DNA of 64,000 nt from Bythopirellula sp. (GTDB lineage: Bacteria; Planctomycetota; Planctomycetia; Pirellulales; Lacipirellulaceae), in contig OZ244170.1 in the NCBI GenBank assembly GCA_965216565.1, forward strand, positions 5,056,001-5,120,000, in the 5' to 3' direction. Positions within the stretch are counted from its first letter, which is position 1; every line of letters starts with the position of its first letter. The notes below the pieces were generated by a model. It saw nothing but the letters and a program-made list of their open reading frames with translations, made no database searches and was not told the origin of the DNA. This document shows positions 180-39,872 of the stretch, piece after piece. The position numbers were made by a program, and so were the translations under genes.

Positions 180-614
180 GTGAAATCTCTCACCGAAGAA
201 CTTTGGATGGACATCCCCGAGCGGCGGGCGATTGTTTCCTTGCACCAGGATGTCGAGCGGCTCGTGACGGAGAGTGGCGTGCAGGAGGGAATTGTCTTGG
301 TAAACGCCATGCACATCACCGCCAGCGTGTTTATCAACGACAACGAGTCGGGACTGCATGCCGACTACGAGCGGTGGCTGGAGGGCCTGGCACCGTTCGA
401 CGCGGGCAGCGACCCCGGCTCCGGCGGGTATCTGCACAATCGCACGGGCGAAGACAATGCCGACGCCCACCACAAACGACAAATCATGGGCCGCGAGGTG
501 GTGGTGGCCATCACCGAAGGCAAGCTGCACCTTGGGCCCTGGGAACATATCTTCTATTACGAATTCGACGGCCGCCGCCGCAAACGCGTGCTGGTCAAAA
601 TCATCGGGGAGTAG
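180..614 (+). CDS. YjbQ/UPF0047 family protein (secondary thiamine-phosphate synthase-like)
   Basis: Motifs [38 protein letters not shown]; probable GTG start at 180. Confidence 0.88.
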
Positions 615-868
615 AAACGCAGAGCTCGCTGAGAATCGCGGAGGGCCGCGGAGTGATATGTTTGCCGCGTTCTGTACCTTCTTTAAGTAGTTCAGCTTCG
701 AAAGTTACTGTCATTCCGAGGTCTGCCGAGGAATCTAGCTAGACCCCTCGGCAGACCTCGGGGTGACAGTAGGCTTTGGCCTTTGCAGAACAACGGCTTA
801 CTTGAGTAGCCACTCAAAATCCTGTCTTCCTCCGCGGCCCTCTGCGATTCTCAGCGAGCTCTGCGTTT
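615..868. repeat. Nested inverted-repeat element between convergent genes (outer 39-bp arms of CGC(A/T/G)GAG units, middle IR, inner 26-bp hairpin)
   Basis: 615-653 vs reverse complement of 830-868 match 38/39; 664-676 vs 784-797; 706-731 vs 746-771 match 24/26. Confidence 0.9.
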
Positions 869-870
869 AC

Positions 871-5780: not shown

Positions 5781-5817
5781 CTCTGCGCAACTCGGCGTCC
5801 TCAGCGAGCTCTGCGTT
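5781..5817 (-). repeat. Arm of the CGCAGAG-unit repeat family (same as 615-653)
   Basis: Reverse complement aacgcagagctcgctgaggacgccgagttgcgcagag; first 18 nt identical to 616-633. Confidence 0.85.
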
Positions 5818-5834
5818 GAGTTCTCCGCCGAACT

Positions 5835-30968: not shown

Positions 30969-32264
30969 ATGGAAACGACCAAAGTTGGCATCATCGGTTT
31001 GGGAACAGTCGGTTCCGGGGTGGCGAGATTGCTGCTGGACTTTGGCGATCGTACTGGTCGCCATGCCGGACGTACCCTCTGGCTAGAAAAGGCAGTGGTT
31101 CGGGATTTGAAGAAGGCCCGAGACTGCGATCTGCCCACCGATGTTCTCACCGACGACATGGACGCGGTGATCGACAATCCTGATATCCAGGTGGTTGCCC
31201 AATTGATTGGTGGACTGGAGCCCGCCCGCACGATCATGTTGCGACTCCTGGAAAGTGGCAAGGACGTCATCACAGCGAATAAGGCCTTGCTCGCGGAGCA
31301 TGGGCCAGAGATCTTCGATCGGGCCCGCGAATTGGGCCGCTGCGTGGCCTTCGAGGCATCGGTTGCCGGGGGCATCCCCATTATCGCCAACATTGGGCAG
31401 TGCTTGTCGGCAAACCAAATCGAATCGCTGCAGGGCATACTCAACGGGACCAGCAACTTCATCCTCAGCAAGATGCACGAAGAAGGCCTGGCCTACGATG
31501 ATGTATTGGCCGAGGCGCAACGATTGGGTTATGCCGAGGCAGATCCGACGATGGATGTCGACGGGACCGACGCCGCCCAGAAGCTGGCAATTCTTGCTCA
31601 CTTGGCATTTGGGGCACGAGTTCACTGGAGCGACATTCCCCGCATTGGAATCGACAATCTTCAAGTGTGCGATGTGGGCTACGCGCAGGAAATGGGCTAT
31701 CGCATCAAGTTGTTGGCCGTTGCCCAACTTGTGGACGAAGGATTGGAACTGCATGTGTCGCCAACGCTAGTTCGCAGTGGCCGACCGCTGGCAGAAGTCG
31801 GTGGGCCTTACAACGCGATCCGCGTTACTGCAGATGCCGTAGGGCAATTGCTGTTTTATGGTCCCGGTGCTGGGCAAATGCCGACCGCCTCGGCAGTCGT
31901 TGCCGACTTAATCGATACGGCAGTGGGCCGCGCACAAATCACTTTTAGCACCCTAGAACTTTGGTCGAATCAAACAGCCCGCGTGAACGCCGCAGATTTC
32001 GCCGCGGCTCGCGGACGTTTTTATATCCGAATCAATGTCGACGACCACCCGGGAGTGCTCTCGCAGATCACTTCCGCCCTGGGCGACGAAAAGATCTCCA
32101 TTGCATCGGTCCTACAGCACGAGATATCGGATAATGGTTCCGATGTGCCGCTGGTGATCATGACCCACGAGACCACCGAAGGCGCCGCTGCGGCTGCTTG
32201 CAAGAAGATCAACGCCCTAGATTGCGTCCGCGGCGATGCAGTACGCATGTGGGTGAGGGACTAG
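30969..32264 (+). CDS. hom: Homoserine dehydrogenase (C-terminal ACT)
   Basis: GLGTVGSG, TANKAL, FEASVAGGIP, NGT.NFIL, GYAEADP, GPGAG..PTASAV. Confidence 0.96.
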   Translation: METTKVGIIGLGTVGSGVARLLLDFGDRTGRHAGRTLWLEKAVVRDLKKARDCDLPTDVLTDDMDAVIDNPDIQVVAQLIGGLEPARTIMLRLLESGKDVITANKALLAEHGPEIFDRARELGRCVAFEASVAGGIPIIANIGQCLSANQIESLQGILNGTSNFILSKMHEEGLAYDDVLAEAQRLGYAEADPTMDVDGTDAAQKLAILAHLAFGARVHWSDIPRIGIDNLQVCDVGYAQEMGYRIKLLAVAQLVDEGLELHVSPTLVRSGRPLAEVGGPYNAIRVTADAVGQLLFYGPGAGQMPTASAVVADLIDTAVGRAQITFSTLELWSNQTARVNAADFAAARGRFYIRINVDDHPGVLSQITSALGDEKISIASVLQHEISDNGSDVPLVIMTHETTEGAAAAACKKINALDCVRGDAVRMWVRD

Positions 32265-32288
32265 GAATAAAGGGAAAAGCGGAGGGGG

Positions 32289-32763
32289 TTTTATTAAAAC
32301 CACGAAGGCACGAAGGACACAAAGACTTTAAAAATGAGTCATCCCCCAATTCCTGATGAGACTGAGAGGGTAGCTCATGAAGTGATACAAGCTGCGTTCC
32401 GGGTGCATAAAGCCCTTGGGCCTGGCCTGCTTGAGTCTGCGTACGAGAAGTGTTTGTGTCACGAATTGAACAAAGGTGGGTTGTCGTTTCAAAGCCAGTT
32501 GGAAGTTCCGTTGATCTACGACGGAATGAAAATTGAATCTGGGTTCAGGATCGATATTCTCGTCGAGGAAATATTGATTGTGGAATTGAAAGCTGTCGAA
32601 AAAGTACTCCCGATAGATAAGGCTCAAGTAATTACGTATCTGAAGCTATCCAAGTTGAGGCTAGCACTGTTACTGAATTTTAATGAAGCACTATTAAAGG
32701 ATGGCCTACAAAGAATCGTAATTTAGCTTCTTTGTGCTCTTAGTGTCTTTGTGGTTAATAAAA
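32289..32763 (+). mobile_element. Candidate GxxExxY mini-element: single nuclease gene between ~35-bp terminal inverted repeats
   Basis: Left ttttattaaaaccacgaaggcacgaaggacacaaag (32289-32324); reverse complement of right arm ttttattaaccacaaagacactaagagcacaaag (32730-32763). Confidence 0.7.
32334..32726 (+). CDS. GxxExxY protein (PD-(D/E)xK nuclease superfamily)
   Basis: LGPGLLESAYE, FRIDILVE..LIVELKA, AQ..TYLK, LLLNF; AT-rich. Confidence 0.93.
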   Translation: MSHPPIPDETERVAHEVIQAAFRVHKALGPGLLESAYEKCLCHELNKGGLSFQSQLEVPLIYDGMKIESGFRIDILVEEILIVELKAVEKVLPIDKAQVITYLKLSKLRLALLLNFNEALLKDGLQRIVI

Positions 32764-32785
32764 GACCTGCAACTCGCAATTTACT

Positions 32786-33985
32786 ATGAAATACGCAATC
32801 ATCATTCCCGACGGTGCCGCCGACGAGCCGCAAGAGGCTCTCGGGGGTAAGACTCCACTAGAAGCTGCCCACACTCCCGCGATGGATGCCTTGGCAGCAA
32901 GTGGCGTTGTCGCCCGGGCCTGCCATACGCCGCAACAACTGCCGGCCGGTTCCGAAGTGGGCAACATGAGCCTATTGGGTTACGACCCGCTGGCCAACTT
33001 CACCGGCCGAGCACCCATCGAAGCGGCAGCGCAGGGGATTGAACTAGCCCCTGAAGATTGGGCAATCCGCTGCAATCTGGTCACCATTGAAGATCAGAAG
33101 ATGCGCGACTTCACGGCAGATCACATATCAACGGAAGATGCCACGGAGCTATTGGCCACGGCCCAGGAGGAACTGGGAGGAGATGGCCTAGAATTTGTTC
33201 CCGGCGTGAGCTACCGCAACTTGCTTCTTTGGCGAGGAGCGGAGCGCCCTGCACCGTTCAGTATGGAAATGCGTGCTACCCCGCCCCATGATCTCACCGA
33301 CAAGTCCGTACTGGACGACTATCCCCGGGGCCCCGGGAGTGATGTGCTCACCGAAATGATGGCCGCCACTGGCCGTCTGTTTGACGATCATCCAGTGAAC
33401 AAGCGCCGTATCGCCGCTGGTCAGTTACCCGCCACGAACGTTTGGCTATGGGGCATTGGTAAGGCTCCCAAGCTCAAGCCATTCAAGGAGGTTCATGGCG
33501 TGCAAGGAGCGATGATCACTGCCGTCGACTTGTTGCGTGGCCTGGCGTCGCTAGTGGGTTGGCAGCGAATCGAAGTTCCCGGTGCCACCGGCTATACCGA
33601 CACCGACTACGCTGCAAAGGGCCAATACGCCATTGATGCGCTGAAGGAGGTAGATTTGATTTGTGTCCATGTCGAAGCCCCCGACGAAGCTTCGCACGAA
33701 GGCGACTGCGCGGCTAAAGTGAAGGCCATCGAAGAAATCGATCGGCACGTTGTCGCACCACTTGTCGCTGAAATTCAGAAACATGATGCGTGGCGGGTCA
33801 TGATCTCCCCCGACCATCCAACGTTCTTAAGCACAAAGACACACACTCATGGAGATGTGCCAGTGGTAGTCGCGGGCACCGGCATCGAAGCAGACGAATT
33901 TACCTCCTACGGCGATGGCAACGCCGCTGAATCGGCTCTGGCTTTTGATAAAGGTCACGAGGCGATGAAGTACTTTATTGGCTGA
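32786..33985 (+). CDS. apgM: Cofactor-independent phosphoglycerate mutase family protein (ApgM; proposed homoserine kinase)
   Basis: PDGAAD, GKTPLE, GSEVG..SLLGYDP, GRAPIEA, HVEAPDEASH, PDH.T. Confidence 0.88.
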   Translation: MKYAIIIPDGAADEPQEALGGKTPLEAAHTPAMDALAASGVVARACHTPQQLPAGSEVGNMSLLGYDPLANFTGRAPIEAAAQGIELAPEDWAIRCNLVTIEDQKMRDFTADHISTEDATELLATAQEELGGDGLEFVPGVSYRNLLLWRGAERPAPFSMEMRATPPHDLTDKSVLDDYPRGPGSDVLTEMMAATGRLFDDHPVNKRRIAAGQLPATNVWLWGIGKAPKLKPFKEVHGVQGAMITAVDLLRGLASLVGWQRIEVPGATGYTDTDYAAKGQYAIDALKEVDLICVHVEAPDEASHEGDCAAKVKAIEEIDRHVVAPLVAEIQKHDAWRVMISPDHPTFLSTKTHTHGDVPVVVAGTGIEADEFTSYGDGNAAESALAFDKGHEAMKYFIG

Positions 33986-34068
33986 TAACCTTGGGGACAT
34001 CAATGGTGTCTTTATCCCACGGCTATTGATGGTTTCCTATTTCCGAAATCCGCATTCTTAAATCCGAC

Positions 34069-36378: not shown

Positions 36379-36516
36379 ATAACCACAAAGATACGAAGAA
36401 AACTTAGAAAAGAGCGATAGAAAAATCTGCTCCTTGGACTAATAGCTCAGTTTAATTCAGCTAATCGTAAAATCCTGTCTAGTTGTTCTTCGGGATCTTT
36501 GTGTCGTTGTGGTTCA
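36379..36516. repeat. Gene-less inverted pair of the AACCAC(A/G)AAG family (GxxExxY-type arms)
   Basis: aaccacaaagatacgaagaaaac at 36381; reverse complement of 36488-36514 aaccacaacgacacaaagatcccgaag. Confidence 0.75.
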
Positions 36517-39693: not shown

Positions 39694-39872
39694 TTTTATT
39701 CTCTCGCAAAGGCGCAGAGACGCTAAGAATTCTTTGAGGTAAGTTCTGAAATGGACGGACTACTGCAATATTTCGTAAAGTACTTCGTTTTTGCTTGATG
39801 ATATCAAACAGATCGAGTTCATAAGAGGCTGCGGATTCTTTTAACTTTGCGGCTCTGCGCCTTAGCGAGAGA
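39694..39872. repeat. Gene-less inverted pair with CGCAAAG/CGCAGAG units
   Basis: tctctcgcaaaggcgcagagacgctaag (39700-39727) vs reverse complement of 39845-39872 tctctcgctaaggcgcagagccgcaaag (25/28). Confidence 0.85.

Follow-up and report, generated by a model that had tools for sequence, protein, structure and literature searches.

A GxxExxY gene of Bythopirellula between inverted arms of spaced 7-mers: a candidate repeat-plus-enzyme system resembling RAYT/REPIN

Introduction

Insertion sequences and their MITE derivatives end in inverted repeats that contain several protein-binding sites, occur in long and short forms, are found nested and occasionally contain passenger genes.

A different organization is that of REP/REPIN repeats and their RAYT enzymes (REPtrons; PMC2817692; 10.1101/2022.05.22.493013). 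In the portions of these papers used here, the RAYT gene encodes a HUH/Y1 (IS200/IS605-like) transposase and lies between two inverted copies of an extragenic repeat that occurs genome-wide, often with a repeat directly past its stop codon. Many gene-less inverted doublets of the repeat are found outside genes, a genome has several types of enzyme and of repeat, which cluster together, and the enzyme genes are single-copy and mostly vertically inherited. In TIRtrons, the TIRYT genes encode tyrosine transposases with a GGGGWSAS motif and lie between terminal inverted repeats that have no relation to REPs and in part belong to repeat families, according to the main text of PMC3733652.

GxxExxY proteins (PF13366, PDDEXK_3; TIGR04256) have a fold core in common with Cas4, restriction-like nucleases and Hjc. 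The portion of PMC3424549 used here gives the function of the family as "Unknown" and refers to "multiple transfers", with no mention of arms at the genes; the mention of GxxExxY in 10.1101/2021.01.26.428298 is incidental. The TAACTGA repeats of PMC4679880 are, in the part of that text used, a different repeat from the arms described here. In the literature searched (the main texts of largely open-access papers), arms at GxxExxY genes were not described.

Results

The GxxExxY gene and its arms

The window, i.e., the whole stretch of 64,000 nt that was analysed, contains a 130-aa GxxExxY gene located between hom and apgM (Table 1). ORF positions and profile matches bore out the prediction made from the letters of the sequence that this gene interrupts the hom-apgM-lysC order. 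The ORF is a plain member of its family and matched PF13366 (E 4.6e-41, 140 bits, cut-off 22) and TIGR04256 (E 4e-42, 143 bits, cut-off 35). PF13366 was its sole Pfam match, and the profile search found no DDE, HUH, serine or tyrosine recombinase domain, in agreement with the predicted absence of a transposase from the unit. The gene was shown to have a G+C content of 43.5% compared to 57.6% for hom, 57.8% for apgM and 55.9% for lysC. The AT-richness that had been pointed out was thus recovered, a recount of positions 32521–32640 again giving 46 G+C out of 120, with neighbours at 56–58%.

Table 1. Features of the 64,000-nt window (positions counted from its first nucleotide).
Feature	Position	Strand	Basis or remark
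Arm pair, AAACGC..GGCCGC type, without GxxExxY gene	614-869		spacer holds another repeat
Weaker, unpaired arm, AACGCAGAG type	5790-5819	-	arm scan
hom, homoserine dehydrogenase, upstream host gene (context)	30969-32264	+	ORF and profile
Left arm: AT-rich outer end, then three CACNAAG units pointing at the gene	32289-32324	+	units start at 32301, 32309, 32318
GxxExxY gene (PF13366 / TIGR04256), 130 aa	32334-32726	+	profile matches; between hom and apgM
Right arm: three CACNAAG units pointing at the gene	32730-32763	-	units start at 32753, 32745, 32736
apgM-like phosphoglycerate mutase, downstream host gene (context)	32786-33985	+	ORF and profile; lysC next
Gene-less inward arm pair, CACNAAG type, degenerate	36380-36515		folds as one long hairpin, z -3.2
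Gene-less arm pair, TCTCGC type, 8/8 spacing	39701-39871		no resident GxxExxY gene of TCTCGC type in genome

The units of the left arm are, in order, CACGAAG, CACGAAG and CACAAAG, and those of the right arm, on the minus strand, CACAAAG, CACTAAG and CACAAAG; the spacing is 8 and then 9 nt in both arms. The left arm ends 9 nt before the ATG and the right arm follows the stop codon after 3 nt, and every figure of the layout given in the original prediction was reproduced. The two arms form the longest inverted repeat in the region 31800–33300 (46 nt, 72% complementary). Since the three-unit pattern family showed 18 matches in the genome compared to 0 in the reversed-genome control, the arm pattern at the GxxExxY gene is not due to chance. 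No GTAG was found at the arm ends of the hom-apgM unit, and no Rfam family reached the cut-off in a scan of the window.

Arms at GxxExxY genes of other genomes

An inverted flank match with a score of at least 26 was found at 137 of 165 GxxExxY loci (the near-complete ones among 200 matches, the others being partial or short-flanked), compared to 1 of 144 distal controls and 329 of 3000 cross-locus pairs. After addition of metagenome, phylum and viral loci, matching inverted arms were present at 261 of 308 loci, a set chosen as best matches to the queries and so not drawn at random from the family. The association of GxxExxY genes with arms is close to certain, and the flank survey that had been proposed showed arms to be general, the opposite of a general lack of them. 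Divergent viral copies showed the inverted layout in 8 of 10 cases, several with quite different periodic units. Four viral loci with divergent genes (L372, L374, L376, and L377) had long, very AT-rich periodic inverted arms, some of them ending in a common CGCTTCGC-like motif, a distinct arm class.

A GxxExxY gene was present in 61 of 120 sampled genomes of the phylum. At least 10 arms (net pattern matches) were found in 48 of these 61 genomes compared to 4 of the 59 without the gene, in a table in which kin are counted though not independent. The exceptions were the four gene-less genomes, with 11–54 arms, and 13 gene carriers with fewer than 10. Arm copies reached hundreds per genome in this sample. 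The gene was rare on plasmids (4 of 72,556 records) and on viral contigs (11 loci), and an atlas search with the protein returned GxxExxY clusters only.

On a quick ML tree of the 165 proteins, with 61 of 162 forks open, arm labels changed 28 times compared to a shuffled mean of 79 and minimum of 72 (119 labelled rows, the 46 unlabelled or mixed rows being omitted). Several protein clades were nearly pure in arm type, and the CAGGAG clade (support 100) was found in five different neighbourhoods in five genomes. Among the sequences compared, arm type was thus shown to go with protein lineage, each lineage apparently having its own type and spacing. Because gene and arms are physically linked, such clustering would be no proof of recognition and could come from co-inheritance alone. 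Residue-to-arm covariation gave strong raw associations that represent only 2–6 independent pairs.

Within the genus, the CACRAAG pattern showed 13 matches in the genome studied here and none in 15 of 27 genus genomes. The CACDRCG pattern was not found in this genome and showed 40–152 matches in six congeners. All six congeners with at least 40 CACDRCG-type arms have a GxxExxY gene bearing such arms; in five congeners with 11–29 of them, no gene of that type was identified.

Arms across the genome

The genome contains four PF13366 genes, each with its own arm type on both sides, and all four are single, divergent copies (two tblastn matches were 43–50% identical to the query). A scan with 235 reference arms from GxxExxY loci of other genomes gave 201 matches at up to 7 mismatches compared to 28 in the reversed genome. 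The stricter limit of 6 mismatches left 133 arms, 6 of them inside coding sequence as called by a simple gene caller. In total, 70 of the 133 arms formed 35 inward pairs (within 1.5 kb) and 63 were unpaired, with only 4 outward neighbours. Partner arms differed by a median of 6 mismatches compared to 16 for random pairs. Most pairs were short (70–270 nt) and without a called gene, and some were nested or of mixed type. Four abundant arm types (19–31 matches each) had no resident GxxExxY gene of their type in the genome, and such gene-less arm types speak against a strict one-to-one link between gene and arm.

The spacers of 21 gene-less pairs were diverse and showed no clear GxxExxY remnant, the best being a 21-residue match (E 9e-4). 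Plain deletion of the gene was rejected as the origin of these pairs, given the lack of a convincing remnant in the 21 spacers. The spacer of the pair at 614–869 contains a different palindromic repeat (710–775), for which BLAST gave about 44 hits across the genome. Of 102 arms, 31 start within 20 nt past a co-directional stop codon compared to 4% for random intergenic points, an excess that could be due to targeting or selection.

Y1 transposase (PF01797) matches (7) and four-helix-bundle genes (3) were rejected as partners of the arms, as none of the 10 had arms within 400 nt. The PF05635 four-helix-bundle genes of the genome (L284–L286) appeared by eye to have their own inverted 7-nt-periodic runs on both sides, which suggests a parallel gene-plus-periodic-arm system. 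Besides, three Y1 transposase genes (L277–L279; G000:C1:881196, 3391341, and 2751317) lie each between their own long inverted palindromic repeats and resemble RAYT/TIRYT-type units, one with an internal TAG.

Other genes between arms, and larger repeats

Small ORFs other than GxxExxY genes, one of them a MafI-family immunity gene, were also found between arms of a single type. The MafI-type cargo looks incidental, because the other two MafI matches in the genus had no arms. At one junction (L421–L445), a 559-nt segment of arms plus a 145-aa ORF was present; of the 19 comparable relatives (5 of 24 loci were not comparable), 11 show a 4-nt overlap of the stop codons, 7 other short gaps, and 1 gene-less arms of another type. 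The convergent gene pair at this junction was split by arm-bounded inserts in two genomes. A possible target duplication is the TTAA present at each outer end of one unit, the empty site of which is the 4-nt stop overlap; this is confounded with the inverted ends, and the relatives are too divergent.

The amplified arm pairs of genome G015 are enclosed by a larger repeat that has conserved outer ends of its own; the sequence conserved in G002 likewise extends past the arms. Some gene-less families of these two genomes are recent and near-identical, yet sit in larger repeats, and may have been spread by another enzyme. The family in G015 (L223–L242), possibly a MITE of another transposase, is a repeat of about 240 nt whose outer ends are conserved near CTAGTAC; three or more internal subfamilies were distinguished, each around an arm pair.

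Host junctions in the genus

A comparison of the hom-apgM junction in 21 congeners showed the gene with arms in 8 (including one frameshifted copy, one remnant and one on a cut contig), a short and empty junction of 2–66 nt in 8, and other repeats or genes in 5; G042, beyond these 21, is a ninth filled case. The search for empty sites that had been suggested thus recovered filled and empty states among relatives, and vertical retention without empty-site variants is not what this junction shows. At filled junctions, both arms were altered together between species. The remnant (L018 in G021) has about 250 nt in place of the middle of the gene; this insert consists of two nested arm pairs inside a short hairpin pair with GTAA-type ends and is surrounded by a 9-nt direct repeat. 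In three congeners (L004, L007, and L008) a further gene of about 220 codons, putatively an Uma2-type nuclease, is inserted at hom-apgM on the opposite strand. An ATTCCGC-like repeat of 7-nt units was seen at the hom-apgM or apgM-lysC junctions of several congeners (L012, L013, L014, L016, L019, and L020) and, in weak form, in the apgM-lysC gap of the genome studied here (33986–34068).

The apgM-lysC junction has no arms in this genome. In 23 congeners it contained a gene with CACDACG arms (5), a gene of a different clade with CGCCAAG arms (3), gene-less pairs (6), a single arm (1) or none (8), and two sister pairs of species (support 100/100 and 99/97) differ in the protein clade carried. Comparable junctions were available here for 13 gene sites of the same genus, and several had gene-less arms of another type, as judged by eye and without a formal count. 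The sequences compared show units to have been gained, lost and replaced at host junctions, apparently over genus-level time.

Most gene copies in the genus were found at shared orthologous sites, and the gene was absent from 2 of 27 congeners. Values of dN were 0.09–0.32 and dS was saturated, even at 85% protein identity. Many gene copies have stayed in place for long, apparently under purifying selection. A strain with about 99% identity keeps the hom-apgM unit, and the unit is spanned by a contig from another sample (7 differences, 1 gap). The joints listed from four sequencing runs included no excision joint at this unit; 69 further joints lay beyond those listed, and contigs drop rare variants. 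Because of the shared sites, the saturated dS and the near-identical strain with the unit, the hom-apgM copy is an old resident and not a recent jumper. The same observations, together with the four single divergent genes, go against the original prediction in its suggestion of an autonomous copy in the sense of an insertion sequence.

The protein and the reading of the arms

The structure model of the protein (pLDDT 95) has a PD-(D/E)xK core and no separate DNA-binding domain. Its closest folds were restriction-like nucleases, Cas4 (SSO0001) and Hjc, with middling scores (best Z 7.5, Cas4 7.4). Foldseek with the model gave no match at E ≤ 0.001, I-Bth0305I being among the weak fold matches, and a sequence search of solved structures gave no homologue (one match, E 0.24, was dismissed). 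Residues E34, D74, E84, K86, and Q98-x3-Y102 are intact, a set that we take to be a RecB/Cas4-type site. D74 was present in 307, E84 in 300 and K86 in 307 of 308 proteins, the putative catalytic residues by themselves were retained in 300–308, and together with the QxxxY motif in 289–308 of 308 sequences. By the core fold of the model and the acidic/lysine triad, the protein qualifies as a member of the PD-(D/E)xK superfamily and as a candidate nuclease.

The periodic part of a single arm was predicted to be essentially unpaired, only the AT-rich outer flank folding, and weakly. Unit spacing was equal between partner arms in 65 of 68 cases compared to 33 after shuffling, and the fourth unit letter matched in 103 of 144 compared to 82. 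Spacer letters matched in 102 of 171 compared to 94 in a within-type shuffle (P 0.06). Mismatches between partners showed no G.U bias for either strand (141 vs. 164) and included 284 transversions out of 589. The lack of wobble bias and these transversions disfavour an RNA or single-strand hairpin of the arm pair (one gene-less pair folds well). As spacing and motif letters are common to both arms and spacer letters are not, the comparison suggests that the arms are protein-binding arrays of spaced 7-mers rather than REP-like hairpins.

Discussion

The GxxExxY units share with RAYT/REPIN, as far as the cited portions describe it, an enzyme gene framed by two inverted copies of an extragenic repeat found genome-wide, the many extragenic gene-less inverted doublets, several enzyme and repeat types per genome that cluster together, single-copy and mostly vertical genes (some GxxExxY clades have moved), and a repeat that often follows directly on the stop codon of the enzyme gene. 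They differ from the same descriptions in that the GxxExxY enzyme belongs to PD-(D/E)xK instead of HUH/Y1, that the arms are non-palindromic triple 7-mers with a period of 8–10 nt and no GTAG head, that spacer letters are not kept complementary between partner arms, and that the range spans many phyla. The GxxExxY system is not a member of RAYT/REPIN, because its enzyme is not HUH/Y1 and its repeats are not GTAG palindromes. It is similar to TIRtrons in the bracketing of the gene; neither a tyrosine transposase nor the GGGGWSAS motif of the TIRYTs, as given in the main text of PMC3733652, is found in the GxxExxY unit. GxxExxY arms are likewise inverted and multi-site, with long and short forms, nesting and occasional passenger genes, as in insertion sequences and MITEs, from which they differ by the absence of a recombinase domain and of identical gene copies, and by spacers that are mostly not conserved; no clear target duplication was seen. 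The REP/RAYT-like reading of the original prediction was upheld in part: the unit is general, empty sites exist, gene-less pairs are abundant and arm type follows lineage. Its likeness to REP at the DNA level was not, as the periodic part of the arm does not fold and partners are not kept complementary at spacers.

We slightly favour the reading that the unit is the gene-bearing form of a RAYT/REPIN-like repeat-plus-enzyme system made from unrelated parts, with a PD-(D/E)xK nuclease. The protein would recognise the arms cognate to it, most likely in the form of consecutive double-stranded sites of 7 bp, and recognition as such is probable from the sequence comparisons. It would then cut or nick at or near the AT-rich outer ends of the arms, and host repair or recombination would copy or move the arm-bounded segment, with or without the gene inside, to a new intergenic site. 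For this mobilisation by the protein, i.e., cutting at the outer ends followed by host-driven movement, we consider the chances evenly balanced. The joining step, the weakest of the proposal, is left to the host because the unit encodes no strand-transfer enzyme. The complete proposal, in which a stand-alone 130-aa nuclease reads lineage-specific 7-mer triplets and spreads itself, empty pairs and passengers via host repair, is put forward tentatively, with somewhat more doubt than belief.

Mobilisation by the GxxExxY protein has to be weighed against movement in trans. The arms could be the ends of a miniature element that is moved by a DDE or HUH transposase or by host recombination, GxxExxY being its commonest and longest-kept cargo. 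This would agree with the bracketing of other genes (the MafI-family gene, and the 145-aa ORF, at whose junction 18 of 19 comparable relatives have a short gap or an overlap), with the plentiful arm types without cognate gene and with the arm pairs of G015 inside another repeat; in addition, we know of no strand-transfer activity of the PD-(D/E)xK fold itself. We nevertheless consider it unlikely, since other cargo is not tied to arms in the way that GxxExxY genes are, arm abundance tracks the presence of the gene, the Y1 transposase genes of the genome lack arms, and a passenger would not be expected to retain lineage-specific arms across phyla and viruses.

A domesticated system, in which the protein binds the arms as sites of the chromosome or of transcripts (operators, terminator-like or DNA-organising sites past stop codons) and slow spread is a by-product, is given a slightly smaller chance than the passenger explanation. 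It overlaps the preferred reading, and the two part only on the question of arm movement by the protein. The long stay at orthologous sites under purifying selection, the rarity on plasmids and viral contigs and the excess of arms just past stop codons are in its favour, and co-option and vertical inheritance are described for RAYTs (10.1101/2022.05.22.493013, in the portion used here). A needed regulatory site would, however, hardly be expected at junctions that many congeners have empty and at which sister species differ in arm type, and two of the 27 congeners do without the gene. PD-(D/E)xK homing endonucleases exist, and a homing-like selfish nuclease that cuts the empty or alternative junction allele and is copied into it by homologous repair, with arms that protect or mark the filled allele, would agree with the re-use of the same junctions by different protein clades in scattered hosts and with I-Bth0305I among the weak fold matches, but it is improbable, as it leaves more than 100 gene-less arms, the nested pairs and one clade at five unrelated sites unexplained, for a protein of only 130 aa without a separate DNA-binding domain in its model.

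The arms are a specific, testable candidate substrate for a large family without assigned function, and they make up an intergenic repeat family running to hundreds of copies per genome for which no description was found. The matched protein and arm types and the very small enzyme make direct specificity swaps possible. If the complete proposal is true, these units would form a new class of mobile DNA that occurs in many prokaryotic phyla, offers dozens of natural protein/arm specificities and is a counterpart of RAYT/REPIN by convergence. Movement of the arms by the protein would not fit any known transposition chemistry and would mean that persistence in the style of RAYT/REPIN evolved twice, from unrelated parts.
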